NCBI GenBank assembly: GCA_963697165.1 | Contig: CAVOMX010000024.1 | Span: 84,767-148,766, forward strand | Reading direction: 5' to 3' | Source: Candidatus Bathyarchaeota archaeon | GTDB lineage: Archaea > Thermoproteota > Bathyarchaeia > Bathyarchaeales > Bathyarchaeaceae | Length of the DNA: 64,000 bases | Shown: one piece after another, positions 14,360 to 64,000 of the stretch | Layout of the letters: every line of letters begins with the position of its first letter | Numbering within the stretch: the first letter of the stretch is position 1 | Translations under genes and position numbers: made by a program | Notes under the pieces: model-generated | Told to the model about the DNA's origin: nothing | Seen by the model: the letters and a program-made list of their open reading frames with translations, nothing else | The model's database searches: none

Positions 14360-14557
14360 CTTGCATTCCTTTCCTACCGCTATAATACGATTGGTAATAA
14401 ATTAGTTTCTCATAATCTGTTTACATTGGAGGCTTTTACTCAAAATTTTTTTGGCAAACTAGATGTTTTGCTTATGATATGGAAGATAGATTCCATGTAA
14501 TAATCCTGTTTTCATAAATGTTATCTCTTGTATCACTTTAATCTGGTTTCGATTAAG

Positions 14558-14785
14558 ATGGATCCGAAAAAGATGCTTTCGAAAGAGATCGCTTACAAAG
14601 TCAGGGGACACATCAGCGAGCAAACCGTTTCTGAGATGGTTGATCAGTTCTTCAAACACGGCAACACATTTTTTCTCTTAGAATTGATGAGTCTACGAAG
14701 AGAAGTAAAAAGCCTAAGAGAAGAACTTCAACAGCAGAAAGAACACAAGCAGCAGGATTCTCTTCGTGAACTAGTTGTTCGCTGA
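14558..14785 (+). CDS. Small hypothetical coiled-coil protein
   Basis: MDPKKMLSKEI...LRREVKSLREELQQQ; fills an intergenic gap. Confidence 0.6.
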   Translation: MDPKKMLSKEIAYKVRGHISEQTVSEMVDQFFKHGNTFFLLELMSLRREVKSLREELQQQKEHKQQDSLRELVVR

Positions 14786-14921
14786 GCCGCTGTAAAGCAA
14801 GCGTTACTCTGATTTGGGGCTGCTCCACGGAAGCCTTGCAGAGCCAATACTCCTAAATTCTTCTTTTCATTAATGTTAAATTTTATGAGTAAGCGTTTGT
14901 TTTCTAGGAGTCGATCGCTAT

Positions 14922-15815
14922 ATGAGTTATCGTGAGCTCTTTGTATCCCCGTCTCCCGTCTTCTCGGGAAGTCAACGAAGCTTTGAAGAGGCAAAATACG
15001 TAGTTTTAGGTGTCCCCTTTGACGTAACCAGTACCTACCGTTCTGGGGCAAAGTTTGCGCCTCTAGCCATCAGAGACGCTTCCCAGAATGTTGAATGCTA
15101 CAGTTTCAGAACTGGCGTGGACGTTGAGGAACTGAAAATCCATGATTTGGGAGACCTGCATGTTGCGGCGGATGTTGAGTTGACTTTGGGACGTTTAGCT
15201 TTGGTTGCGCAGGACCTTTTTGAAGCCGAGAAAGTTCCAGTGTTTATTGGTGGAGAGCACACAATTACTTTAGGTGTTATGAAGAGTCTCAAAGACGTTG
15301 CAGTGGTAAGTTTTGATGCTCATTTAGACCTGCGTGATGACTATCTTGGTCTTTCTGTGTCTCATACAACCTTTATGCGGAGAATCAAAGAAGATGTTAA
15401 TCCTTCCAAGATTTTGGAGATTGGCACCCGCGCAGTATGCAGAGAAGAGCTTGATTACGCGAAAGAGGCTGGAATCGACTATCTGACTGCCCATCAGATA
15501 CGAAAGGACGGGGTCAAAAAAACGGCTGAAAAAATCAAGGAAGTCCTTGGTGGCTGCGAAAAAGTTTACGTTACAATTGACATGGATGTTCTGGATCCTG
15601 CTTTTGTGCCTGCAGTTCCGAACCCTGAACCTGAAGGATTGGATACCTCAACGCTTCTGGATCTTCTGGAGGCGGTGTGTGAGCGTCGGGTGGTTGGATT
15701 CGATGTGGTTGAGGTAGCGCCTCACTATGACCAAGGCGTAACTGCTACTCAGGCTACAAAAGTTATCTTTGAAGTGTCTAGGCTTCCTAGAAAGAGCACA
15801 AAAAAGCTAGTCTAA
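14922..15815 (+). CDS. speB: Agmatinase
   Basis: GGEHTIT, FDAHLDLRD, TIDMDVLDPAF, PEPEGL, DVVEV ureohydrolase motifs. Confidence 0.93.
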   Translation: MSYRELFVSPSPVFSGSQRSFEEAKYVVLGVPFDVTSTYRSGAKFAPLAIRDASQNVECYSFRTGVDVEELKIHDLGDLHVAADVELTLGRLALVAQDLFEAEKVPVFIGGEHTITLGVMKSLKDVAVVSFDAHLDLRDDYLGLSVSHTTFMRRIKEDVNPSKILEIGTRAVCREELDYAKEAGIDYLTAHQIRKDGVKKTAEKIKEVLGGCEKVYVTIDMDVLDPAFVPAVPNPEPEGLDTSTLLDLLEAVCERRVVGFDVVEVAPHYDQGVTATQATKVIFEVSRLPRKSTKKLV

Positions 15816-15830
15816 GCTGTTATTTTTGCT

Positions 15831-17173
15831 TCATATGGTCTCTTTTTTTAGTTTTGCTACGAAGAAGCCGTTGCATTCATGAATGTGAGGATAGAGTCTC
15901 TGGCACTTGGTTAGTCCTCTGAGTCCCGGCAATCCGATTCTGGGCTTTGATTCTACCAGCTTGAATTCTGGGTGCAGTTTCAGAAAGTTTTCGATAACCA
16001 TCTCGTTTTCCTCTAATGTTATGCTACATGTGGAGTAGACCAGAAAGCCGCCATCTTTCACGTATTCTGCGCACTGTTCTATCATCTCCTCCTGAATCTT
16101 CGACATGCCCAGCATCGACCGTTTGGTTAGTGCGCCACTTCGCGTCAGGTGTCTTGCCGAAGGTTCCTGTGCTTGTGCATGGCGGATCCAAAATCACCAA
16201 GTCCGCGGAAACATTCAATGGCAAGCAATTTCTTGCGTCAGCAATTATTGGCGAGACAATTTCTGTGCCCGTGCGTTCTGTTTCTCTTTTCCATACCTTG
16301 TATTCTTCGTTTTGAGTAGTCAACAGAAATTATTGTTCCTCTGTTTTCCATCAGCTGCGCCAAGTAGGTTGTTTTGGAGCCTGGGGCTGCGCATATGTCA
16401 AGTACTGTGGTTCCCTGCTTTGGGTCTGCGATTTCTGCTGCTAGGCAGCTGGCTTTGTCTTGTATGTAGAAGTGTCCTTGACTGAAGCTTTGTGTTCTTG
16501 TTAGTGGTTTGTTTGTTTCTATCAGCTTGTGTGTGTGTTTTAGTTGCGGAACCTTCTCCAGAATTATCTTCTCGTCTGTTATGTTTTTGAGTAAGGTTTC
16601 TGTTGGCGCTTTCAACGTGTTCAATCGCACGTAGACTGGTGGGATATCTTCGGATTTTTCTAGGAATTTTAGGGCTTCTCCTCTTCCAAGAAGCCTGAAG
16701 CAGTATTTTACGAACCATGTGGGATGATATGTTTGGAGTCCAATCTTCTCTGTTTCTTCTAGACCTTTTAGGATATTTTCTGTGTTTATGCTCAGTATTT
16801 CGCCGAGAACCTCTTCGATGTCTTTGAGTTTCCACCATCCCAGTATTGAGCGTCCCATTTGGGCTATTCTTGAGGCTTTCTCTAGGTTTCCGTCAGCCAC
16901 TTTTGTTTCATAACAGTATAGTTGAAGGAAAACTTTTGGACCAAGTTTGAGGTCATTTAGTGACCGCGGCTCTAGAACCGAGTTTAGCAGAAAGTCGATA
17001 TAATTCTTTTTTCTGAGTGTCTCGGATACTAGCCTGTGGGCTAATCCGATTGCTTTTGGGTCTTTAATTCTAAGCTGTTTTGCGGCTTTTGTTAAGGCTA
17101 AACGTTCACCTAGCCGTTTCAGTTCAATCCAGCTCAGTGTTTCGATGGCGAGAATCCAAGCGTCCCTTAACAT
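15831..17173 (-). CDS. RsmB/NOP2-family RNA m5C methyltransferase (split by two indels)
   Basis: YIQDKAS, LDICAAPGSKT, LDPPCTSTG and LVYSTCS across three fragments. Confidence 0.9.
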
Positions 17174-17278
17174 TTCTGTTCGTATTATGAGTCTTTGCTG
17201 GGTGCCTATTAAAAGGCTTGATTATTGTTAAATAACCGCACTCATTCCTTTGAATGTTGACTGTTCAAGTGTTGTGGT

Positions 17279-17572
17279 ATGGACATGAAGTTGCAAGAGA
17301 CTGCTCAGGGCGTCGTTTTGGATGTACATGTTAAGCCCGGCTCGAAGGAGTTTCGGTTACAATTTGAAGAAGATGAGCTTGTGGTGCTTTGCCGTGAAGC
17401 TCCAGTGAAGGGCAAAGTCAACAAGGAATTGCTGAAACAGTTTTCGCGACTTTTTGGACGCAAAGTTGAGCTTGTTTCAGGGTCTACTTCAAGACAAAAG
17501 AGGTTTCTTATCAGCGACATCGAAGCAGAGGAAGTTAACCGAATCTTGGTTTCTGCCTTGGGCACTCGATAG
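17279..17572 (+). CDS. DUF167/YggU family protein
   Basis: VHVKPGS, APVKGKVNKEL, LVSGSTSRQK. Confidence 0.88.
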   Translation: MDMKLQETAQGVVLDVHVKPGSKEFRLQFEEDELVVLCREAPVKGKVNKELLKQFSRLFGRKVELVSGSTSRQKRFLISDIEAEEVNRILVSALGTR

Positions 17573-17661
17573 TTTGATTTGAGGATGCTTTTTTAGTAAT
17601 CTATTTAAAAGCTGAAATGGACGCTTCTTTTAACGGTTTGATGCTCAGTGGAGCATGAACC

Positions 17662-18768
17662 ATGTTGCCATTTCAAGTGTCTCTTGGGGTGAAGAAGATA
17701 GTTAAGCCTAAACCGTCAGTTACCGTAGAGCTTTCAGACGAAGAATTGGAATACTATTCAAGGCAGATTGTATTGGCTGATTTGGGCTACAATGCCCAGC
17801 TGAAACTGAAAAATTCTAAGGCTTGCTTGCTGGGTGTTGGCGGTTTAGGTTCTCCGGCGGCGATGCAGCTGGCGGCTATGGGAGTTGGATATTTGCGTAT
17901 TGTTGATCGTGATGTTGTGGAGTTGACTAATTTGCATCGTCAGCACCTCTATGGCCTTGATGATGTGGGATACCCAAAGGTTGAAGCTGCTGCCAAACGG
18001 TTACAGAACTTGAATCCTTACATCAATATAGAGCCTCTTCCGCTCTCAGTAAATCAGGCCAACGCAGAAGATATCGTTAAGGGCATGGATGTTGTGGTCG
18101 ATGGTTTAGATAGCATGGCTGCCCGTTACGCAATCAACAGAGCCTGCATCAAATTTGGTGTCCCCTACGTTTTTGGGGCTGCCATAGAAACCAATGGTAA
18201 CTTGTCTACGATAGTTCCGGGAGAAACAGCGTGTCTCGAATGCTTCTATGGCAGTCTTGATGACAAAAAGTTGCCCAAATGCGGGGTGGTGGGAGTTCAT
18301 CCATCTCTGGTGAATATAATAGCAAGCCTAGAAGTCAGCGAGGCAATCAGAATACTAACAGGAAAGCAGCCCCGCTTAGTCAACAAGCTTCTTCATTTTG
18401 ACCTAGATGAACTAGAATTCAATGAGATCTGCCTCTCAAAGGTTGATTCCTGCCCCGTCTGTGGGGTAAACCCGTCAGGTTCTGCTATGCCGCTAAGGCA
18501 TGAGTTGATGGAGGAAATCTGTGGACGAAAAGGAAAGAAGGTGTTTGTTATCGTTCCAGAAGAGAGCTTGGATGTTAATCTTGTATGCTTGAAGGGCTAC
18601 TTGGCGAAGAAGGGGTTCAGCATCAAAGTTGAAGCCAAACTCGGACTGACATTTGTTCTCCGAGATGTTAAGGCAAGTGTTCTAAAAAGTGGAGTAGTTA
18701 TTCTTGAAGGAATCAAAAAAAGAGATGAAGCACTCAAGCTTTTCGAGGAATTAACTGGTAACTGCTAG
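17662..18768 (+). CDS. ThiF/MoeB/UbaA-family E1-like adenylyltransferase
   Basis: YSRQI, GVGGLG, DRDVVELTNLHRQ, CLEC and CPVC zinc motifs. Confidence 0.92.
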   Translation: MLPFQVSLGVKKIVKPKPSVTVELSDEELEYYSRQIVLADLGYNAQLKLKNSKACLLGVGGLGSPAAMQLAAMGVGYLRIVDRDVVELTNLHRQHLYGLDDVGYPKVEAAAKRLQNLNPYINIEPLPLSVNQANAEDIVKGMDVVVDGLDSMAARYAINRACIKFGVPYVFGAAIETNGNLSTIVPGETACLECFYGSLDDKKLPKCGVVGVHPSLVNIIASLEVSEAIRILTGKQPRLVNKLLHFDLDELEFNEICLSKVDSCPVCGVNPSGSAMPLRHELMEEICGRKGKKVFVIVPEESLDVNLVCLKGYLAKKGFSIKVEAKLGLTFVLRDVKASVLKSGVVILEGIKKRDEALKLFEELTGNC

Positions 18769-49641: not shown

Positions 49642-49745
49642 TGGCGGACCCGCAGGGATTTGAACCCTGGGTCTTCGGCTCCGAAGGCTTGCGCGTCACC
49701 CTTTTTTGGTGACTCGACGCCTTATCCAAACTAGGCTACGGGCCC
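49642..49745 (-). tRNA. tRNA-Arg(TCG) with 26-nt non-canonical intron at position 29/30, CCA encoded
   Basis: GGGCCCG acceptor; anticodon arm TCG[intron 49689-49714]GC-CTTCGGA-GCCGA; GGTTCAAATCC T-loop; ends GCCA. Confidence 0.9.
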
Positions 49746-50580: not shown

Positions 50581-50655
50581 GGGCTTGTAGCTCAGTTTGG
50601 CTGGAGCGTTCGGCTGATAACCGAAAGGTCGAGAGTTCAAATCTCTCCAGGCCCA
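50581..50655 (+). tRNA. tRNA-Ile(GAT)
   Basis: GGGCTTG acceptor, TTCGG-CTGATAA-CCGAA anticodon arm, GAGAG-TTCAAAT-CTCTC T-arm, CAGGCCCA. Confidence 0.96.
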
Positions 50656-50680
50656 CTTTTCAATTCACCAGGCCCACTTT
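50647..50680 (+). repeat. 13-nt direct duplication of the tRNA-Ile 3' end (att-like scar)
   Basis: CCAGGCCCACTTT at 50647-50659 and 50668-50680. Confidence 0.8.
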
Positions 50681-50871: not shown

Positions 50872-50921
50872 TTTTTGAGTTGTAAAAACGTAATGTTTGG
50901 TTGGCTCTCTTGTGGACATTT

Positions 50922-50987
50922 ATCCGATATAATAGAGTATCGTATAGCATCATTTTAACCCTAATCCGATATATTTTTATATCGGAT
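50922..50987. promoter_or_regulatory. Tandem inverted repeats upstream of the fic gene (putative operator)
   Basis: Perfect ATCCGATATA-TTTT-TATATCGGAT at 50964-50987; degenerate copy at 50922-50945. Confidence 0.65.
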
Positions 50988-51015
50988 AACATACAATTAT
51001 GTTCAGGGAAAACTA

Positions 51016-51950
51016 GTGACATTGATCAATAAGCGAATTCACAAAAGAGTGCTTGATAAGAAAAAAAGACTGGACAGCCGCAGGCCTCTTTCCGCTTCAC
51101 TTGTAAAGAGACTAAAAGAACAACTGTGCATCAACTACACATACAATTCTAATGCCATCGAAGGAAACACATTGACCTTGCATGAGACAAGGCTAGTTAT
51201 CCAAGAGGGAATTACAATTGGCGGAAGGAGCATAACAGAAATTCTAGAAGCAAAAAATCACCCAAAAGCAATAAACTTCATAGAGGATCTGGTTTCAGAA
51301 AAAGAGCGAAATTAGCGAAGGACAATATACTTAGTCTTCACAAGTTGATAATGTCCAACATTATTGACGATGCTGGATGTTATCGAACTACAGGAGTAAC
51401 AATAGGTGGAGCTGCCTTTAAACCACCACCCAGTTCAGAAGTCAAACCTAGAATGGATGAACTTTTAGATTGGTTAAGAAGAAATCCTGACGAATACACA
51501 CCAATAGAACTTACTGCAGTTTTTCATCACCGGTTCGTTTCGATACACCCATTCATAGAAGGAAATGGAAGAACAGCCAGACTTCTGATGAATGCTACAT
51601 TAATGAAAAACGGATATCCTTTCATTGCTATTGTTTCAAAAAATGATCGCCCAAAATATCTGAAATCGTTGATGGAAGCAGATTTGGGAAACAGTGCCCC
51701 TTTTGTAAACTTCATAGCTAGATGCGTTGAAAAATCTTTGGATGTATATCTCGATGCTTTGGAAGAGCCCAAAATCCTAACGCTTTCCGAAGCCGCCAGA
51801 ATGACGTCATACAGCCAAGAATACCTAAGTTTGCTTGCCAGAAAGGGGTCACTAGGAGCACATAAGCAGGGCAGAAATTGGGTAATATCCAAAAAAGATC
51901 TAGATAGATATCTGACTTCTGTAGGCAAACCGTTATCTAAGACCAAGTAA
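51016..51950 (+). CDS. Fic-domain protein with C-terminal excisionase-like HTH (frameshift near 51310)
   Basis: YNSNAIEGNTLT inhibitory-type motif, HPFIEGNGRTAR Fic motif, LTLSEAA...YLSLLARKG...GRNWVI HTH. Confidence 0.92.
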
Positions 51951-52345: not shown

Positions 52346-52546
52346 TCAGGAAAACTGATCCACCATAAGAGAATCAGCGTGACTATGAAAAAAGATCCAA
52401 TAAAAAGAAGTAGTTGTGACCAACCTTTTTACTCAGTCATTAATACTACTTCTAACCCAGCCCATTAGGAGTTGTTGACTAGCAGTCTACAGGAGACCGT
52501 TCATCAACTTCTAATAAGTCCCTTCATGCAAGTGCATATAATACTG

Positions 52547-52631
52547 AAAAAAAGGGAATTTGCTGGATTGAATTTGTGTGCCGGGAGATATCTCCACTGA
52601 CCGTGGGGTTCAAATCCCCGCGAACCCACCA
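52547..52631 (+). repeat. Island repeat copy 1 (most complete; 3' end resembles a tRNA T-arm/acceptor)
   Basis: AAAAAAAGGGAATTTGCTGGATTGAA...GGGAGATATCTCCACTGACCGTGGGGTTCAAATCCCCGCGAACCCACCA. Confidence 0.85.
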
Positions 52632-52865
52632 GTAATCCCTTGTTTTATCAATTAAAGCTTAATTCAGACTTATTTAGGCGAATGAAGTGTAAAATAACTG
52701 TATTGATTTGGGATTAAAATTTTTCCATTCTCAAAACTCTACTTTCATGTTCTGATTTCTCTGTTCATTGTTAATATGCAGGTTTATAAGCAGCTATGAG
52801 TTTGTTATTGTTGAATTAGTGATTTTTTAATCTAGTTTTATCGTAGAAGTGGAGGTGCGAAATGA

Positions 52866-53015
52866 ATGTCTTATGGTGGACCAAGAGAAATGCACAATGC
52901 AGTCTGCGCTGAATGTAAAAAGGAATGTCAAGTTCCTTTCAAACCAGACGAAAGTAGACCTGTATACTGCAGAGAATGTTACAGTAGTAAACGTCCTGCG
53001 AGAAGTAGATATTAG
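52866..53015 (+). CDS. CxxC-x17-CxxC domain protein (49 aa; not in ORF track)
   Basis: MSYGGPREMHNAVCAECKKECQVPFKPDESRPVYCRECYSSKRPARSRY; GGAGGTG RBS. Confidence 0.92.
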   Translation: MSYGGPREMHNAVCAECKKECQVPFKPDESRPVYCRECYSSKRPARSRY

Positions 53016-53200
53016 CTTTAGAAGCTAGTCTATGATATGTAAAAAGTGTTTTTTACAACTTTTTTTCTCTTTTTTTACTCTATTTTGTTGGATTAAGGAC
53101 ACGAATGTTACCTTTATGGACTAATGTTTGTTGGGTGTAAAACCAAAAATTTTTTTGGGTCTGGGTTTTAAGGGGAAAAACTAGAAATCATGAGTATCAC

Positions 53201-53286
53201 AAAAAGGGGGGAGTTGCGGGAATAGTTCGGGAGAATAGTGGAGATTTATCCAAAGGTTCCCTTTGCAAATGCCCACGACCCCACCA
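53201..53286 (+). repeat. Island repeat copy 2 (degenerate)
   Basis: AAAAAGGGGGGAGTTGCGGGA...GGAGATTTATCC...CAAATGCCCACGACCCCACCA. Confidence 0.75.
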
Positions 53287-53379
53287 AAATTACCCGAGGT
53301 CCATGTTGTTATTTCACTTGTGCCGTAGTTTGTATGGATTGTCCTAGTGTTTAGTACTAGTTGGGTCGACATGTTGATG

Positions 53380-53703
53380 TTACTTGGTTGGGTTGGAGAG
53401 GAAGCTTTCTTTTTCTTGTTCTATGCGTTGAGTTTCTTCGGTTTTAGTTTTAACGATGTTGTCTATGACTTCTTCAAGAGGCACAGCAACGAAAAATGTT
53501 TGGTTTTCAGTTTTTAAAATCACGAACCCCTTTTCATGCAAGTTTCTAAGGCTGCAACAGAGTTGTTGGTCATCAGCATTTAAGGCATAAGCTAAGTCTT
53601 TTTCTTCGTGTGGACCTTTTTTTGCTAGGTAAATGTACACTTGAGCATCCATCTCTGTGAGTCCTAAGCTCATTAATGCTTTAAGTGCCAATGTTAAACT
53701 CAA
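53380..53703 (-). CDS. Short TrmB-type HTH protein (module 1)
   Basis: LMSLGLTEMDAQVYIYLAKKGP...LRNLHEKGFV. Confidence 0.85.
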   Translation of the reverse strand: MSLTLALKALMSLGLTEMDAQVYIYLAKKGPHEEKDLAYALNADDQQLCCSLRNLHEKGFVILKTENQTFFVAVPLEEVIDNIVKTKTEETQRIEQEKESFLSNPTK

Positions 53704-53789
53704 TTTTATTCATCCAATGAGGCAGTAACGAACTACTGAAAACCCAAAAAAGGAAAGAAGGTATTTGTGATAGCGATACTCCCTTCTTT

Positions 53790-54215
53790 TTATTTGCCTA
53801 CTAAAACCTCTCTGTAGTGTACTCCGTCAGGATAATTCTGTAATGCCCACATGTGAAGACCTATGTATGCATTAGTTCCAGGAGCAGCGCCATAAACGAA
53901 GGCAAGCCAATCTCCATAAATAACTGCAGAGAAGAAAAGCCATTTGTTTTCCATTTCAGAAACTTGAGAAATGTCAGTGACTACAAAAGCGTTGTTTCTT
54001 TTAAAATCTCTTGCGTCCATCCACATGAGATGTTTATCTATTCCATTCACCCATTCTTGGTTCATCCCGCTTGGTAATCCAATAGCAACTCCATAAGAAG
54101 GAAAATCAACATTTGGGTTGTTCACTGCATTTTGAGGTCCAATAGCCAAAACTGGAGTTGTCAGCATAACTACAGCCGCCAATGTTGCGAAAAGGGCAAA
54201 TATTTTTTTATTCAA
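53790..54215 (-). CDS. Predicted secreted protein (module 1)
   Basis: Signal peptide (M)NKKIFALFATLAAVVMLTTPVLA; GGAGGTGA RBS. Confidence 0.8.
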   Translation of the reverse strand: MNKKIFALFATLAAVVMLTTPVLAIGPQNAVNNPNVDFPSYGVAIGLPSGMNQEWVNGIDKHLMWMDARDFKRNNAFVVTDISQVSEMENKWLFFSAVIYGDWLAFVYGAAPGTNAYIGLHMWALQNYPDGVHYREVLVGK

Positions 54216-54375
54216 ATTCTTCACCTCCCTTTGAACGATAAAGTACCACGTTCTCTTTTGGTGTTTGAACTCTATATTCTATAGGTAGTCGGAAAAAATA
54301 CGACCAAGTAGAGAATTCTTCCATAATTAACTTAAGCGCAAAACGTTCATGTCTTATTTGGCGTGGAGGGGTTAG

Positions 54376-56526
54376 TTGAGCCAAGAACAAGTACTCAAGA
54401 CGCTCACAAACCTCGGATTCGATGAGAATGACGCCCAAGTGTACGTTTATTTGGCAAAAAAGGGTATGCAGAAAGCAAGCGAAATATGTAAAGCGACCAA
54501 GTTAACAAAGCAGCAGCTGTATCCGAGCTTAAAACGGCTGCAAAGCAAAGGCATAGTAAGTTCAACAATTGAACATCCCGCGCGCTTTAGCGCATTAGCC
54601 TTCGAAAAAGTATTGGACCATTTTATTAAAGCGAAAATGGAAGAAACACAAAGTCTGCAGGAAAGCAAAGCTGAAATTCTCTCTAACTGGCAGAACCTCA
54701 AACTCGAAGATACCACGTCAGCAAAATTTACAATAATAGAAGGCAGAAGTTACATTTACTCTAAAATCCAACATATGATTCAAGAAACGAGAAACCAAAT
54801 TCTAACCATAACCACGGTTCCCGCTCTGTTGCAAGCGAACCAACGTGACATTTTCGACGTTAACTCCAATCACCTTTTAAAATCCAAGATTCAGTTCCGC
54901 TTCTTAACCGAACTGTCACAACAAAACATACATGCTATCAAAGCATTCTTGAAAGAATTCGCGAACGCTAGGCTCAACTTTGAGGGGAGAAATCCAGATC
55001 TAGGTATGACGCTTTTCCCACAGATGCTCATAAGAGACGGGGAAGAAGCATTGTTTTTCGTCAACACCCGAACAGAAACGTCAATAATTGAAAAGGATGA
55101 TGTGTGCCTCTGGACGGATTGCAAAACCCTCGTTAAAGCATTCACTGCAGTCTTTGAGGAGTCTTGGCACAACTCAACTGACATCCAAGAAAGAATAACT
55201 GAGATCGAAACGGGTAAGCTGACCCCAAAAATGTTGATTATTGTAGATGGCGAAATAGCCAAAAAGAAGTATAATAAAATCGTGAATTCGGCTAAAGAGG
55301 AAATCTTAATCATCACTTCCTCGAAAGGTCTCGTCGATTTATGGAAAAACAATACACAACTCAATGAATTGATTGAAAAGGGCGTAGCCATCAAGATTAT
55401 GGCACCAATCGTGGGCGAAGACTTGGAAGCCGCCAAACAACTTTCCAGATTTTGTTCTGTTAAGCATGTTCCGCCAAACTATCTACCAACCACAATTATT
55501 GATGGAAAACACCTTTTCCAGTTCAAAAAATCCACTACAGAGAAGCAACCGCTTGATGCATTGCCACAATTCGAAAACACTTTTTACACCAACAATCCCG
55601 AATACGTGGAAAAAACGAAAACCATGCTAAATGAAATCTGGAAAAATACTAGTCCCCCGTCTGCTGACAACTTGAAATCGATCTTTGGACCAGGTGTTCG
55701 GAGTCAAAGCGGTGCTTTTTTTCCAGGAGCAATTCACAGTCCCGGTCCGCATGGAACGTTTTATCCTTCACCTCCTGACCCTACAAAGAAAGGCGATTAC
55801 CCAGTCATTGAAATTGTTAATGAAGACCCTTCGGGAAAAATGAAAGAACAAGACGTTTTGAACGAAATTATTACAGCACAAAAAAATCCACCTAAAGATC
55901 AGGTGTGGAAATTTTATTCTAGCCAGGCAGTGGCTATCATTCACCCCTCGGACATCTTTAATTTGCCCCCTATGCTGATTCGCGTCCATCATATTGAAAA
56001 ACATTCCACATTCGGTGAACAAGATGTCATAATGATCAGCTTGTGGCTTGAGACATCCAATGGTCACGCATATGTGCCAGTTGCTGTCTTGGTGGACAGC
56101 CCCCAGGCTCAGCCTTATTGGGAAAAACATTTTGCAGCTTCACCAGCAGGTCAAAACGTTCAGGTGGCAAAGAAAGGCGAGCTACAGATTCGGGTACATG
56201 GTAACACTCTTTTCGCTGGGTGGACAGTCCCAATCCCTCTTTTTCCGGCACAGAACATCCTTCCTCCTGCATGTATGTTGATTGAAGGCTACGGAGAAGT
56301 CAAGACCGCCGCATACACGATAATTCAACCCTGGGGCGGAGAGTTTAAGGCTAAACAAAACGGCTTCGACGCCTTCGTAACTTTTATGCATCCCTCCTCA
56401 AAATATTCTGGACCAGGCACAGATGGATTCTTAGTAAGAGATTTCATCGGTGATGTAACGACTCAATTCGCTGAAGGGGTCCGTCCAACTCTGCACATCA
56501 ATCTGATTGAGAAAAAGAAATCGTGA
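54376..56526 (+). CDS. Long TrmB-family regulator: HTH + two effector-type domains + novel C-terminal domain (module 1)
   Basis: LGFDENDAQVYVYLAKKG...LKRLQSKGIV...HPARF; FTIIEGR; IIDGKHLFQF; C-terminal GFDAFVTFMHPSSKYSGPGTDG. Confidence 0.88.
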   Translation: MSQEQVLKTLTNLGFDENDAQVYVYLAKKGMQKASEICKATKLTKQQLYPSLKRLQSKGIVSSTIEHPARFSALAFEKVLDHFIKAKMEETQSLQESKAEILSNWQNLKLEDTTSAKFTIIEGRSYIYSKIQHMIQETRNQILTITTVPALLQANQRDIFDVNSNHLLKSKIQFRFLTELSQQNIHAIKAFLKEFANARLNFEGRNPDLGMTLFPQMLIRDGEEALFFVNTRTETSIIEKDDVCLWTDCKTLVKAFTAVFEESWHNSTDIQERITEIETGKLTPKMLIIVDGEIAKKKYNKIVNSAKEEILIITSSKGLVDLWKNNTQLNELIEKGVAIKIMAPIVGEDLEAAKQLSRFCSVKHVPPNYLPTTIIDGKHLFQFKKSTTEKQPLDALPQFENTFYTNNPEYVEKTKTMLNEIWKNTSPPSADNLKSIFGPGVRSQSGAFFPGAIHSPGPHGTFYPSPPDPTKKGDYPVIEIVNEDPSGKMKEQDVLNEIITAQKNPPKDQVWKFYSSQAVAIIHPSDIFNLPPMLIRVHHIEKHSTFGEQDVIMISLWLETSNGHAYVPVAVLVDSPQAQPYWEKHFAASPAGQNVQVAKKGELQIRVHGNTLFAGWTVPIPLFPAQNILPPACMLIEGYGEVKTAAYTIIQPWGGEFKAKQNGFDAFVTFMHPSSKYSGPGTDGFLVRDFIGDVTTQFAEGVRPTLHINLIEKKKS

Positions 56527-56640
56527 TAAGAAATAGCCACATTGTATCGCGGGCTCTGGTAGAGTCTTTTGCTATTATACTGATACGTTTCCATTAAATT
56601 TTAAATTGCAAACGGTTGATATCTTTGTTCAGATTTACTG

Positions 56641-57234
56641 ATGAATGCCCGATCAATTGCGCTAATAGCTACTTTTGCCGCTATTGCCATTGCTTTAAAT
56701 ACTGTCAGGATTCCCACGATTTATTGGCCGGGATTTTCTTATCATTTTAATGAAATTCCAATAGTAGTTGCGTTCCTGCTTTTTGGTCCCAAGATTGGCG
56801 TCTTGGTTGGTAGTTCTTCATCTTGCAGGTCAGGAAGCTTTGTTTCCTGTCGGTCCGGTTGGCATCGTAGTATATCCAATGGGTTTTATGGCTTTACTCG
56901 TCATGCTTTTTGGCATATATTTAGCAATTAGGTTCATTATCTACAAAGTTGCACCGGAGATGCCTATTGATGAGAAAAAGCGAACCATTTATTTGACTGC
57001 CTTTGCAGCCGTGTGTCGGGGAGCAGTTATGCCTCTAATTGCTTATGGCGTTCTGTACCGTTTCCTGTTACCGCTGGTTTTGGGGACTCCTATTCCTGAA
57101 GCATACATAGCAGCATTAGTGCCCAGTTTTGTTCTATATAATGTTACATACCCCTCTACACAATTCCTATCAGCTATGTTATAGCAAGAAGAGTAAGCAA
57201 TTACCTAAAACTGGAAGCGGAGCCTATAATATAG
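56641..57234 (+). CDS. ECF transporter S-component-like membrane protein (module 1; two frameshifts)
   Basis: MNARSIALIATFAAIAIAL, EIPIVVAFLLFGPKIG, several TM helices. Confidence 0.7.
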
Positions 57235-57351
57235 GTCTGAGAATCCAGCAATGCTCTATCTCAATTTTTGCTGCTCTTCTTTCTGAAGGGCAACTTATTA
57301 GTCAAGTATTTAGAGTCTTGATCATGTGTAGCCGATAGAAAGGACGACCCT

Positions 57352-57488
57352 AAAAAAAGGGGAGTTTGCGGGTGATGTCTCCATTGGTCCCCGGTGAAAA
57401 TCCCTACTGGTATAGTGGACTTATCTTAAGAATTAAAAAAATGGGAATTTTGCAGGAGATTTCTCCCCTGTGAGGAGAGTTCAAATCT
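57352..57488 (+). repeat. Island repeat copies 3 and 4 (tandem, shortened)
   Basis: AAAAAAAGGGGAGTTTGCGGGTGATGTCTCCATTG (from 57352) and AAAAAAATGGGAATTTTGCAGGAGATTTCTCCCCTG...GAGAGTTCAAATCT (57435-57488). Confidence 0.75.
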
Positions 57489-57551
57489 AAACTTATAGAT
57501 TTGGACTGGATGGTTTACCATGTTGTCGTCGTTAGCTAACTCTTCCTACCA

Positions 57552-59729
<2,178 letters not shown>

Positions 59730-59813
59730 CTAACTCCTTTCTGTATGTTTTTTGGAAAAAGTTATTCTAAAAAAAAGTAGCTGTTTATGCTTTTTAATAT
59801 TTTGGAGATAGTC

Positions 59814-59885
59814 AAAAAAGGGGGAGTTTGCGGGATTTTTTTGTGGGTCGGGAGATATCTCCACTGACCGTGGGTTCAAAATCTC
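59814..59885 (+). repeat. Island repeat copy 5
   Basis: AAAAAAGGGGGAGTTTGCGGGATTTTTTTGTGGGTCGGGAGATATCTCCACTGACCGTGGGTTCAAAATCTC. Confidence 0.88.
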
Positions 59886-60016
59886 AGAGATAATAAATGG
59901 GACTGGGGTCTATTCTAGACTTCAGTAATTCTAACATACATTCGAAATGGTAATTAACTGTTTGTGGAATTTTTCTTAATTATGGTTTCCAAGTTTGAGA
60001 GAAGAGGTTTTTTTGT

Positions 60017-60367
60017 TCACAATTTTTTGGAATTCTTCTTTGTGATATTTTGCCATCTTGATAAGAGTTCATCTTTCTTTTTTTTAATGAACTCTGCTTC
60101 TTCCAATTTAGTTTCCCTAAAAGAATCTAATGAATCTTCAATAGTTAATGCTGTAAATAATGCAGGACGCTTAAGGGATGCTTCAACTAACCCTAATTTC
60201 TGAAGCTTTTTTACACTACGATAGACCTGCTGCTTATACAAATTTAGTTCCTGCGATAACTCTACACCTTTCTTCGAACCATTAGTGGCAAGATAAAGGT
60301 AAACTTCAGCATCTACTTTTCCAATTCCAAGACTTGTAAGTAATCTCAATAGTTTATTACGACTCAT
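60017..60367 (-). CDS. Short TrmB-type HTH protein (module 2)
   Basis: LTSLGIGKVDAEVYLYLATNG...VYRSVKKLQKLGLVEASLKRPALF. Confidence 0.88.
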   Translation of the reverse strand: MSRNKLLRLLTSLGIGKVDAEVYLYLATNGSKKGVELSQELNLYKQQVYRSVKKLQKLGLVEASLKRPALFTALTIEDSLDSFRETKLEEAEFIKKKKDELLSRWQNITKKNSKKL

Positions 60368-60442
60368 TTAATCCCATCCTTTTTAATATAAAAAAAGAGG
60401 AAATAATTAGGGTATATTTTTGTAAACGACTTGTGGTTAGCT

Positions 60443-61147
60443 TTATGGTACTGGCATTGGTGGTATACAGGTGTCGATAGCATGCATTATAACTTTACAA
60501 TCGGTCATTGGTGCTGCATCATAATTCCATCCTGGACAAGTTAATGTTCCGTCTGCATTAAAGCCCATTCTATCTTGAGTAAGAGTGTAACCTGAAGCCA
60601 TAGGATAGAAGTCTAAGGTCATGGCTCCTTCAAAGTGGAATGAGCCACCAACCTTGTCTAACTCCATTGTAAAAGCAGGTATAACTAGATAATGTGGTGA
60701 AGGTATTATAACTAAGCATGATAGATCTACAGTTAAACTAGCGGTGATGCTGTTTCCATGCCTATCCACTTGCAGTATCTCCTCTGAAACCTCCCAATTG
60801 TTTGGACCCGCTGGTACTCCAGTCCACAGGTTTTTCATAAAATCCATATAATTAGTATTTGTTCCAATGACCGCCAAAGGCATAAAAATGCCAGCATCAG
60901 GAGTAAGTTGCCACCACATTTCTATCTGTAAATAATCTCCAGGTCCATAAGTTGAATCTGCAATGTCAAAAGCATTTATTCTAAGGAGTCCAACAGGAGT
61001 TTCCTTAACACCTGTACCCACACTAGCATATGTTACAATGACACCTTCAGGAACCTTAAATTTTTTAGCGAAAGCTGGAGCGAAAGAACTGAAAACCATA
61101 AGTGCTACAACAATAAAAATAACTGAAATTGATATTTTCTTTTTCAT
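60443..61147 (-). CDS. Predicted secreted protein (module 2), similar to the C-terminal domain of the long TrmB regulators
   Basis: Signal peptide MKKKISISVIFIVVALMVFSSFAPAFA; GGAGGTGA RBS; motifs STYG, MPLAV, PAGPN, LQVDRHGNS, GFNA. Confidence 0.82.
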   Translation of the reverse strand: MKKKISISVIFIVVALMVFSSFAPAFAKKFKVPEGVIVTYASVGTGVKETPVGLLRINAFDIADSTYGPGDYLQIEMWWQLTPDAGIFMPLAVIGTNTNYMDFMKNLWTGVPAGPNNWEVSEEILQVDRHGNSITASLTVDLSCLVIIPSPHYLVIPAFTMELDKVGGSFHFEGAMTLDFYPMASGYTLTQDRMGFNADGTLTCPGWNYDAAPMTDCKVIMHAIDTCIPPMPVP

Positions 61148-61275
61148 TTTTTCACCTCCCCCTGATGGATTTAGTGGAGATTCATATCCTCCAATCAGAA
61201 AAAAGTTATAGCGTTAATGATTATTAAAAAGGGGATGTACGGAAAAGTCACCTCTTTAGCAGGTTGCAGTTAACG

Positions 61276-63323
61276 ATGAGTACAGATACAATAGTGATCG
61301 CTCTCAAGAATTTTGGATTGACCAATAAAGAGGTAGAAGCATACATTCTTCTTGCAAAAAAGGGTCCCATAAAAGGAACAGAACTTGCTAGATTAATGAA
61401 AAGAAACAAGGGTCAAATTTATCGAATACTAAAAAATCTCCAGAAGAAAGGATTTGTAGAATCAACTCTTGAATATCCCAGACGTTTTACATCAGTTCCT
61501 TTTGGAAAGACTTTAGATCAATTAATAAGAATCAAGCAAGAAGAAGCTGCATTTATAGAGAAAACAAAAAAAGATTGGCTCAAGGATTGGAAAAAAATTA
61601 GCAAACCTCGAATCCAACAATCAATGGAAAAGTTTGTAGTTATTGAAGGTAGCAAAAAAATTTACTCAAAAATTGCTGAAATGATTGAGAACACAACAAT
61701 CAAGTTATCAGCAATATCAACTGTCAAAGATTTGGTTCGAGCTGAACAGTTTGGCGTCTTTGACTTTGCCTATAAGCATCCATTAAAAACTGAAGTTAAG
61801 TTCCGTTTTCTCACAGAAATAAATAATCAAAACCTAAAGGCGATTAAGCTACTAAAAACCAAATTAAGGGCAGAACTTGATTTTAAGGGAAGAAATCCTG
61901 ACCTAGGCTTAAGCTTGTTTCCTAGAATGGTGTGTAAGAGATGAAGAGGAAATCCTATTCTTCATATCAACAAGAACAGACCGTCCCACTAAAGAACAGG
62001 AAGTGTGCCTATTCACAAACTGCAAATCATTGGTTCAAGCATTCTCAAAGGTCTTTGAAGATTTATGGCGCAACTCAACAAATATAGAGAAAAAAATAGA
62101 GGAGATAGAAACCGGAATAAAGACTCCCAAAACATTCATTATCAATGATGCTGGGACTGCCAAAAATAGGTATAGTGAGATTGTCAACTCTGCCAATAAA
62201 GAAATTCTTGATGATGACCTCTTCAGAAGGACTAATCGGATTGTATAAAAACCTTGATTCATTAAAGGGTTTGGCGGAAAAAGATGTTTCAATAAAGATT
62301 TTAGCCCCAATAGTGAAAAAGAATCTTAAGGCAACCCAATATCTCTCCAAGTTCTGTGAAATCAGACATACACCACTAAGTTATGTTCAGACAACTCTTG
62401 TTGATGGAGAACACTTGTTTCAATTTAAGACTCCACCTTTTAGTCAAAGCATTTCAGAATCATCAATTTTTGAAAGTACCTTTTACTCAAATGATTCAAA
62501 ATATGTTAAAAGAACAAGAATAATGTTTAATGACCTTTGGAAAAGAGCCCAATCTCCATCCAAAATCACGCTTGATTCAATAACCAGTAGGAAATCTAGA
62601 ACTCAGATTTCTATTCCGGAGGAAACAGATTATTCACTATACTACAAAACATTCGGTTGGACCAAAGATCCAAAGTCCAATGATTTACGGGAAAAAGATA
62701 TTATTGAAAAAATTGTGAATGCCAAAAAATATCCAGGAGAAAACTGGAAAAATGATGTACTCAGGTATTATGGTAGTTCTGCTAAAGCTATTATTCATCC
62801 ACCAAAGAATTTTGGTTTACCAGATTTGATTATTGATGTTTTAAAATTTAATAGTCAGTCTTCTTTTGGTGCTGAGGATATTCTTTCGGTTTATTTGATG
62901 AATTATGGGACAGTTGCAACTATTCAAACTAATCCTGCAGCTGTTGATTATCGGAAAAAAGCTGTTTTTGCAAACACTCCAGCGGAAAATAATATCCAAC
63001 TATTAAAAGATGAAGAGTTTCAGGTTCGAGTTCAAGGTAACACTCTTTTTTGCGCATGGACAATTCCATTACCGCTTATCGAAAACTACATTCTTCCACC
63101 AGCATGCATACTATTTGAAGGACATGGGGAACTCAGAACAGGTATAATTCGATCAAGTATCAACAATCGTAAACAGGTAACAGAGTATAATGCTCTTGAC
63201 GCATTTGTAACATTCTTTCATCCATCATCAAAGTATTCAGGTCCAGGTACTGACGGTTTTTTTGCTAGAGACTTAATTTTCACTTCTATTCCGGAAAAAT
63301 CAGCTGCTTTGCAAAAGCAATAA
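61276..63323 (+). CDS. Long TrmB-family regulator (module 2; two frameshifts), paralog of 54376-56526
   Basis: FGLTNKEVEAYILLAKKG, FVVIEG, GRNPDLGLSLFP, LVDGEHLFQF, DAFVTFFHPSSKYSGPGTDG. Confidence 0.87.
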
Positions 63324-63384
63324 ATATCAAACGAAAACAAAAACTGCTTTGGTAATACTTTCTAGAATTCAAGGGATCATTGAT

Positions 63385-63942
63385 ATGATTAGCAGTAGAG
63401 ATCTTGCATTAATCATAGTCTTTGCTGTTCTGACTTTTGTCTTTATGTTATTAATAGGCCAAGTTCCTGAATTGGTTACTGGGATTCCTGGAATCTCATA
63501 TGTTTTCACTATAGTCTATGCTATTAATCAAACTGTTGCCCGGCTGATGTTTGAAGGAAGGAGGTGGAGAATCTTTGCCCGGGGTTCATTAGTTAGTTTG
63601 CTTGGCTTTTCATTCATTCTAACTTGGAATCGACCTTTAGGAATGGCTACAATATTAAACGCCTTCATTGTTGATGTTGTTTTCAACAGCGTTTACGGAT
63701 TATTTGAACAGAAGAATAAACTTCTTTGGTGGGCGATTCTTTCTGAAGTTTATTATTGGCCAACACACTCATTGTGGATTGTAGTATTTGGTTCATTATT
63801 TTTCTATCCTTTTGAATTGATTATGGAGCAATGGGTTATTCCCATAATGTCTGTGATGCTCCCCATCATGATAATTGAAGGAATAGCAGGCGGATACATA
63901 GGATACAAAATTTATCAGCGCGTGAAGAAAATTCAAAACTAA
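63385..63942 (+). CDS. ECF S-component-like membrane protein (module 2)
   Basis: MISSRDLALIIVFAVL N-terminal helix, about 6 TM segments, C-terminal IAGGYIGYKIYQRVKK. Confidence 0.7.
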   Translation: MISSRDLALIIVFAVLTFVFMLLIGQVPELVTGIPGISYVFTIVYAINQTVARLMFEGRRWRIFARGSLVSLLGFSFILTWNRPLGMATILNAFIVDVVFNSVYGLFEQKNKLLWWAILSEVYYWPTHSLWIVVFGSLFFYPFELIMEQWVIPIMSVMLPIMIIEGIAGGYIGYKIYQRVKKIQN

Positions 63943-63945
63943 TAG

Positions 63946-64000
63946 AAAAAGGGGGGAGTTTGCGGGATTTTTTATTGTGGGTCGGGAGATATCTCCACTG
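63946..64000 (+). repeat. Island repeat copy 6 (truncated by window end)
   Basis: AAAAAGGGGGGAGTTTGCGGGATTTTTTATTGTGGGTCGGGAGATATCTCCACTG, near-identical to copy 5. Confidence 0.88.

Follow-up and report, generated by a model that had tools for sequence, protein, structure and literature searches.

Related TrmB-type regulator modules in Bathyarchaeia with an interchangeable secreted gene and a putative operator that follows the recognition helix

The regulators TrmB, TrmBL1 and TrmBL2 (PF01978 and PF11495) have a helix-turn-helix of the winged type (wHTH) with a DNA-contact tyrosine, which is Y50 of TrmB (PMC4158304), a coiled-coil helix and an effector domain with a phospholipase D (PLD)-like fold. 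They use a palindromic site that lies up- or downstream of the TATA element, as described in PMC4706686 and PMC4158304. In the account of PMC4706686, TrmBL1 activates from upstream and represses from downstream, divergent promoters included. Here, we describe two modules built around regulators of this type in a stretch of 64,000 nucleotides from Candidatus Bathyarchaeota archaeon (assembly GCA_963697165.1, contig CAVOMX010000024.1, positions 84,767 to 148,766), hereafter called the window, together with their relatives. In each module, a short HTH gene and a gene for a secreted protein on the minus strand diverge from a long regulator gene and a membrane gene on the plus strand. The regulator is twice as long as TrmB, TrmBL1 and TrmBL2, with two PLD-like domains and an extra domain that resembles acetoacetate decarboxylase (ADC). 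It appears to have one private operator per module and not a global regulon, and it is paired with a secreted gene and an HTH-only paralogue. The new element is an inverted repeat of ~20 bp between the divergent promoters, which appears to track the recognition helix of the regulator. An open-access literature search found no description of this module.

All eight genes of the two modules (53380-57234 and 60017-63942) were confirmed in the window, with the duplicated order and orientation that a sequence-only reading of this DNA had described (Table 1). The same reading had called the regulators paralogues; GRNPDLG..LFP and a second motif that it quoted were both found, and at only 46% identity these are old paralogues. 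A tandem duplication is ruled out by this identity, by the differing recognition helices, operators, secreted genes and membrane genes, and by the separate cassettes in which the modules lie. Two more regulator copies, both damaged, are located on contigs C19 and C14 of the same genome. The C19 copy (14436-17671) has the HTH and the first PLD-like domain without the ADC-like domain, and is followed by an unrelated open reading frame (ORF) of 499 residues and a gene of the membrane protein 2 family. For comparison, 43 genome loci, 78 metagenome loci and three stretches of the own genome gave 112 regulator starts. Retaining intact ORFs below 95% identity left 85 regulators, with 27 split, cut or duplicate rows removed; 17 of the 85 are cut by contig ends. 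The short HTH gene and the secreted gene, divergent from the regulator, were found in this order at 54 of the 68 non-redundant Bathyarchaeia regulators with flanking DNA (66 of 112 before de-duplication). The earlier proposal of a family that is conserved, exchanges its secreted gene and diversifies in its parts is supported. The family comprises 1343 protein clusters.

The core module is composed of three genes, the short HTH, the secreted protein and the long regulator, and not of four. A transporter gene follows the regulator in 38 of 66 modules (19 of the major facilitator superfamily (MFS), 17 of the membrane protein 1 family and 2 of the membrane protein 2 family) and none does in the other 28; a co-oriented gene resembling an S component of energy-coupling factor (ECF) transporters, as in the window, is present in only 16 of the 66. 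On a tree of the regulator body (PLD and C-terminal domains), the transporter is distributed randomly, its type changing 25 times, compared with 29.5 times after shuffling (minimum 23; 64 rows). The four-gene unit with coupled specificity proposed earlier is not supported. Independent variation of the membrane genes had been named beforehand as what would speak against it, and such variation is found for the fourth gene. In the class, the MFS subfamily is present in 50 of 301 genomes and the S-like family in 43, against 11 for the C-terminal sensor domain of the regulator. The description of both membrane genes as ECF-S-like holds for protein 1, whose N-terminal piece matches PF07155 with 31.5 bits (cut-off 26.7) and whose intact relatives match PF12822 and PF09515 below cut-off, but not for protein 2. 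Protein 2 has no profile match, one relative matches PF09605 below cut-off (E 0.007), and relatedness to the membrane protein 1 family is not demonstrable (hhalign 2.7%). Single-copy relatives of the S-like gene lie beside fwdA-fwdC-mch in six of nine loci examined. The single-copy relative of membrane protein 1, which in loci L192-L197 runs convergent to fwdA-fwdC-mch and has an MptN-like ligase nearby, is a candidate methanopterin- or methanofuran-related S component.

The regulators start with a TrmB wHTH (PF01978, E 5e-12 and 3e-15). The AlphaFold model of regulator 1, with a mean predicted local distance difference test (pLDDT) of 76, can be described as a winged helix and long helix (residues 1-106, of which helix 76-106 is the coiled coil), two PLD-like domains (116-280 and 285-428) and a β-rich C-terminal domain (about 505-696). 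The first three domains match structures of TrmBL2, TrmB and Nuc/PLD. The PLD-like effector-binding fold is seen in the match to PF11495 (E 1.8e-7) and to 2f5t (Z 14.7, root mean square deviation (rmsd) 2.5, 131 aligned residues). Nuclease activity of the PLD-like domains was rejected, as inspection of the alignment consensus shows no HKD motif. With 31.3 bits against an NCBIfam cut-off of 650, and 716 residues against ~340, the TrmB/TrmBL1 equivalog match is not reached. In its working, the regulator resembles a one-component switch of the TrmB type, without being a TrmB/TrmBL1 equivalog.

The sequence-only reading had stated that the two secreted proteins have no visible similarity other than their signal peptides. 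They are indeed unrelated to each other (best E 0.16), but it had missed that secreted protein 2 is, across its whole mature length, a homologue of the regulators' own C-terminal domain. BLASTP (E 3e-8) and hhalign (97.9%, E 5.6e-13) agree on this, and the alignment score of 110 compares with a maximum of 63 in 1000 shuffles. The model of secreted protein 2, made from a joint alignment of 42 sequences, has a pLDDT of 95.7. Its closest structure is the ADC-like entry 4zbo (Z 12.3, rmsd 4.3, 168 aligned residues). Five ADC-like entries head the structure search (Z 11.2-12.3, rmsd 4.3-4.6, 168-174 aligned), the next row has a Z of 9.0, and Foldseek gives the same link with E 5.6e-6. Secreted protein 2 and the C-terminal domain are predicted to have the ADC β-cone fold. 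No match was found in Pfam, PF06314 included, no PDB sequence matched below E 0.03, and the Atlas search with secreted protein 2 gave no match. Like the members of the ADC-like superfamily (ADC, MppR, Sbi00515, Swit_4259), the modelled domain has a β-cone fold (Z 11-12, ~170 aligned residues) and, by eye, a strand-DN-helix-GxP arrangement. It differs in having no detectable sequence similarity to them, and in being fused to a transcription factor or exported through a signal peptide. The segment D-N-helix-G-x-P-K of three Bathyarchaeia ADC proteins corresponds by eye to D-N-helix-G-x-P-A in the C-terminal domain. The lysine of G-x-P-K is the catalytic Schiff-base lysine of ADC. In the column so aligned, 218 of 254 regulators have alanine and lysine is not among the six commonest residues; the catalytic lysine is apparently absent. 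The strands of the C-terminal domain alternate fixed and hypervariable positions (entropy correlation 0.49 at lag 2 and 0.23 at lag 1), a pattern that would suit a variable pocket set in a conserved scaffold. The family of this domain counts 500 representatives at E ≤0.001. The domain occurs in 11 of 301 genomes of the class, with at most 10 matches per genome, and 10 of the 11 belong to two families of the window's own order; it occurs in 3 of 301 genomes of the phylum.

In the divergent intergenic region of most modules, a transcription factor B (TFB) recognition element (BRE) and a TATA element point to the regulator, a TATA-like element points the other way, and a variable inverted repeat of ~20 bp comes next. 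The regulator promoter, with a strong BRE, mostly has the operator downstream, and the promoter of the secreted gene, without a strong BRE, has it directly upstream. Over 71 intergenic regions, the best palindrome score is 8.19, against 7.40 ± 0.09 (maximum 7.68) in shuffles. Where a module has both a short HTH and a scored operator (38 modules), the likeness between operators follows the recognition helix of the regulator with a partial r of 0.475 once the rest of the protein is controlled for (0.51 for the whole HTH; reached in none of 500 permutations). It is unlinked to the helix of the short HTH (0.066, p 0.15), the C-terminal domain (-0.017) and the secreted family (0.045). Seven helix classes cover 61 of 70 modules, with the operator pattern of the class in 56 of these 61 and in four modules outside; these counts describe and do not test, the patterns having been drawn post hoc, and kin are not independent. 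On the body tree, the helix class changes 17 times compared with 38.6 after shuffling (85 rows) and the secreted family 39 times compared with 52.8 (77 rows), counts that do not demonstrate co-evolution because kin share labels. One and the same pairing of helix and operator is met again on distant branches of the body tree and beside as many as seven secreted families, and this points to exchange of HTH and operator as a block. No close copy of either window operator was found elsewhere in the own genome. The tight coupling in the module is that of recognition helix and operator.

The secreted slot comprises 13 clusters in 77 modules, 11 of them with at least two members and one a singleton that is not secreted. 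They include the proteins that resemble the sensor domain (16), two unnamed families of 14 each and the family of secreted protein 1 (7), a small family distinct from that of secreted protein 2. Hydrolase-like, collagen-repeat, pyrroloquinoline quinone (PQQ)-propeller-bearing and DUF3224-like families are also present, DUF3224 being matched by only 2 of 41 secreted proteins scanned. Searches of Pfam, NCBIfam and profiles gave no family for secreted protein 1, and its Atlas matches are weak and mixed. Profile links between the small secreted families are weak (probability at most 59%), and a common barrel fold is a lead. Members of secreted family 2 also lie away from any regulator copy, at C9:64852, C17:29554 and C12:187799, the last directly behind a tRNA-Ala.

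In the reading that we prefer, the three-gene unit would activate the secreted gene under the control of a ligand, the regulator would repress itself and the short HTH would damp the response. This would account for these features, and we give it a probability of about one half. A regulator dimer likely binds its private inverted repeat. Following the rule reported for TrmBL1 (PMC4706686), it would activate the BRE-poor secreted promoter and damp its own. A small molecule in the predicted ADC-like cone may gate the switch, and the short HTH could tune the response by forming mixed dimers that titrate active regulator dimers. Differing helix/operator pairs would insulate co-resident modules from each other, and a transporter, where present, may move the inducer. 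The variable pocket and the MFS or S-component neighbours suggest diverse small organics or cofactors as ligands; the S-like relatives near methanopterin-pathway genes are only a hint to the ligand.

Several observations weigh against this reading. The short HTH is missing in 8 of 68 modules, and 6 of 68 have a co-oriented order. No operator copy was found upstream of transporter genes, and membership of the transporter in the regulon was rejected on that ground. The operator abuts the BRE position and could block TFB rather than recruit it. In module 1 and its close kin, the TATA-like element of the regulator is downstream of the operator, and autorepression may fail in these modules. The operator was misplaced at two loci or more (L037 and L047). 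The ADC link is structural only, at 4-9% identity, and hhalign to three ADC sequences gave nothing (probability at most 0.1%). The equivalence of lysine and alanine was matched by eye and does not come from a structural alignment, and the inward direction of the variable face is only assumed. Finally, the recognition helix looks normal in 35 of 56 short HTHs, and these could bind DNA on their own; the modelled heterodimer described below may pass through its likeness to solved TrmB dimers.

The same layout could also be operated by classical TrmB logic, a possibility that we place on the improbable side. The regulator would then repress both promoters over the BRE or start until it is released by a nutrient or cofactor that the cell imports. 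Scavenging or processing of this compound would fall to the secreted protein and its import to the S component or MFS protein, and the short HTH would be an anti-repressor in a positive feedback. TrmB itself is described as an effector-released repressor (PMC4158304), and an operator only ~5-8 nt from the secreted gene's TATA-like element would suit repression. A secreted promoter without a strong BRE suits dependence on an activator better (compare TFB-RF1, PMC5937170). The transporter behind 38 of 66 modules, the hydrolase-like, PQQ-propeller and DUF3224 proteins in the secreted slot and the single-copy S-like relatives near C1/methanopterin genes fit an uptake system, but the transporter is absent in 28 modules and its type is unrelated to the variable positions of the sensor (partial r -0.001). 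Divergent regulator and signal genes with a small inhibitor-like gene are known from LuxR/LuxI with TraM or TrlR and from Rgg/SHP, and the arrangement of activator, secreted gene and possible anti-activator resembles them, although the protein families are unrelated. A quorum-like circuit, in which the secreted protein is, makes or carries a signal that is sensed after import, with positive feedback checked by the short HTH, would predict cognate pairs of secreted protein and regulator. There is a small link of pocket positions to the secreted family (partial r 0.105, p 0.001), 24 of 81 pairs with similar pockets share a secreted family against 13% overall, and secreted labels change less often on the body tree than after shuffling. 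Yet the pocket type of regulator 1 is found with seven unrelated secreted families, and a secreted family is shared by 6 of 7 regulator pairs at 80-95% identity, by only 9 of 31 at 70-80% and by ~11% below 60%. At pocket-like positions, the domain-like secreted proteins place their own regulator at a mean rank of 48.5 of 83, no better than chance. Cognate co-evolution of these proteins with their own regulator was rejected, as only 2 of 16 have a place among the best two of 85, and so was a pheromone derived from the signal peptide, which does not co-vary significantly with the pocket (r 0.04, p 0.12). The coupled specificity of the earlier proposal is not supported here either, and a quorum-like role is unlikely. 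Because cognate pairing is missing and the pocket link is only weak, the secreted protein looks like an interchangeable output and not a private signal; secreted gene, variable sensor positions and transporter appear to be swapped almost independently.

The role of the short HTH within the preferred three-gene reading bears on one more alternative. The short HTH keeps the coiled coil, with Trp105 in at least 90% of sequences. At the DNA-contact position, 35 of 56 have tyrosine, compared with tyrosine or phenylalanine in 56 of 56 regulators; the module 1 protein is one of the 21 without it. Of 52 modules, 44 have a terminator-like pyrimidine/T tract between the secreted and short HTH genes, compared with 15 that have one on the opposite strand and 2.5 expected from shuffling. 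Simple co-transcription behind the secreted gene, as proposed earlier, is uncertain because of this tract, and the short HTH would be made in small amounts, through read-through or from a start of its own. When the short HTH is modelled with regulator 1 (residues 1-112) as the heterodimer proposed earlier, the score is 0.60, and the best of three controls has 0.00; at least 86% of contacts are shared between runs, and the partner has a pLDDT of at least 86. By benchmark this is weak: the mark is reached by 116 of 157 solved complexes and by 2 of 215 mismatches, and scores of 0.60 or less come from only 18 of the 157 but from both mismatches. The short HTH could instead be an independent second-tier transcription factor with targets elsewhere, the rest of the circuit staying as above. 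Its wHTH is as conserved as that of the regulator outside the wing, it shows no particular closeness to its own regulator (first rank in 0 of 56; permutation p ~0.05), and the terminator-like tract precedes its gene. This is very unlikely, given the degenerate recognition helix in the module 1 clade, the linkage to the module across operator classes and the modelled complex, weak as it is.

Table 1 Features of the two modules and of the surrounding cassettes in the window (aa, amino acids).
Feature	Position	Strand	Remarks
tRNA-Ile(GAT), anchor of cassette array	50581..50656	+	downstream genes differ in 10/10 congeneric genomes
Border repeat	52544..52637	+	A/G-rich arm, palindromic core, 3' end like tRNA T-arm/acceptor
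Border repeat, left edge of module 1	53197..53291	+	
Short TrmB-type wHTH and coiled coil, module 1	53380..53703	-	107 aa; PF01978 E 8.7e-13; Cys replaces recognition-helix Tyr
Secreted protein 1	53790..54224	-	unnamed family without relation to sensor domain; 144 aa; signal peptide seen on inspection
TATA-like element (inferred), secreted gene of module 1	54272..54279	-	abuts operator; equal spacing in related modules
Operator-like inverted repeat (putative), module 1	54284..54306	.	pattern in 12/12 modules with same recognition helix
Regulator 1	54376..56526	+	716 aa; wHTH and coiled coil, two PLD-like domains, ADC-like C-terminal domain (~aa 505-696)
ECF S-component-like membrane gene 1	56641..57234	+	frameshifted at two places, probably through assembly errors
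Border repeat, right edge of module 1	57348..57407	+	partial second copy 57436-57487
Catalase-peroxidase gene	57552..59723	-	own cassette between modules; PF00141; higher GC
Border repeat, left edge of module 2	59811..59888	+	
Short TrmB-type wHTH and coiled coil, module 2	60017..60367	-	116 aa; PF01978 E 7.3e-14
Secreted protein 2	60443..61147	-	234 aa; signal peptide and stand-alone homologue of regulator C-terminal domain, ADC-like β-cone (predicted)
Back-to-back BRE/TATA-like (+) and TATA-like (-) elements (inferred), module 2	61196..61228	.	layout conserved across 71 intergenic regions
Tentative operator, module 2	61230..61255	.	low matrix score 6.1; unlike module 1 operator
Regulator 2	61264..63323	+	~680 aa; 46% identity to regulator 1; frameshifted near 61932 and 62208, probably through assembly errors
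Membrane gene 2, second small family	63349..63942	+	S-component candidate; no profile match
Border repeat, right edge of module 2	63945..63999	+	at contig end

Regulator 2 is spread over three frames (61264-61944, 62003-62248 and 62145-63323). Related public contigs are one base shorter at ~61932-61934 (three contigs) and at 62208 (one contig), and two have an extra base after 57148 in membrane gene 1. Single-base differences of this kind are seen at three of four breaks, and many further genes in the assembly look split in a similar way; the frameshifts are therefore probably assembly errors, the alternative being strain-specific decay.

Each module, and the catalase-peroxidase gene between them, fills the gap between two att-like border repeats. 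The repeat is 60-90 nt long and has 59 copies in the genome, with five full copies behind the tRNA-Ile of the window and 15 behind a tRNA-Pro on contig C10, all on the tRNA strand. Ten congeneric genomes have differing genes behind tRNA-Ile; the module is there in none and the border repeat in six. A tRNA is located no more than 300 bp from 7 of 62 foreign modules, where tRNA density leads one to expect ~0.6% as a rough figure, and 10 of 121 foreign loci have the border repeat, mostly just behind the module. This pattern fits independent site-specific insertions, and we infer mobility of the units from it. Tandem integrated elements are known at archaeal tRNA genes (PMC8371274). As in the elements described there, and in integron-like arrays, units are stacked behind the 3' end of a tRNA gene with tRNA-fragment repeats as bounds; the units here differ in being 0.3-6 kb long without an integrase, and the repeat in having a conserved palindromic arm. 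No integrase was found inside the elements, and of 10 tyrosine-recombinase matches in the genome none is on this contig. On C10 (2300-25900), the fifteen same-strand repeats behind tRNA-Pro(GGG) bound gene units of 0.2-6 kb, and a C-terminal fragment of a tyrosine integrase reads directly into the 5' end of this tRNA gene. On C1, an integrase fragment precedes tRNA-Glu. A casposon origin of the border repeat is not supported, as the repeat was not found beside Cas1 in eight regions of relatives and 12 narrower loci are also blank. Two Cas1 elements in relatives have other ends, and Cas1 has no match in the own genome, which is 81% complete. The small Cas1-encoding elements of relatives (L179 4354-9546 and L182 7474-13702) have direct repeats of 13-14 bp and terminal inverted repeats, and the one in L179 lies just upstream of tRNA-Leu. 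A short T/G-rich stretch like the terminal tips of these two elements is located at 53140-53175, just left of the module 1 border repeat.

Other features of the window and of the genome were also observed. The first unit behind tRNA-Ile encodes a Fic-domain protein with a C-terminal HTH_17 and one frameshift (51016-51950), and an inverted repeat at 50920-50989 may be its operator. A small Cys-rich ORF region (52861-53015; CxxC-x17-CxxC-like and apparently frameshifted) makes up its own unit between two repeats. A second catalase-peroxidase gene (C10:67-2181), like the one in the window, which is GC-richer than the genome, adjoins a border repeat. A tRNA-Trp gene with an intron-like insert (49642-49745, minus strand) was detected only in an intron-aware search.

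Bathyarchaeia are an abundant group, most of it uncultured, and their ways of sensing the environment are little known. With such modules, one cell could likely run several separate sensing circuits. A bolder reading, in our view rather doubtful, takes the modules as mobile combinatorial circuits for extracellular sensing with orthogonal helix/operator codes, a catalytically dead ADC-fold pocket that has diversified toward many small molecules, and interchangeable secreted outputs, which would serve chemical communication between sediment archaea; as part of it, the free copy of the sensor domain would capture the same class of molecules outside the cell. The domain may put the ADC fold to a new use in ligand sensing and is a case of a sensor domain that serves again as an exported protein, and the secreted slot is a catalogue of many unnamed extracellular proteins under what we propose is inducible control. 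The family offers a natural code between recognition helix and operator, readable from sequence, for an archaeal regulator, and orthogonal archaeal switches of this kind would be useful tools.

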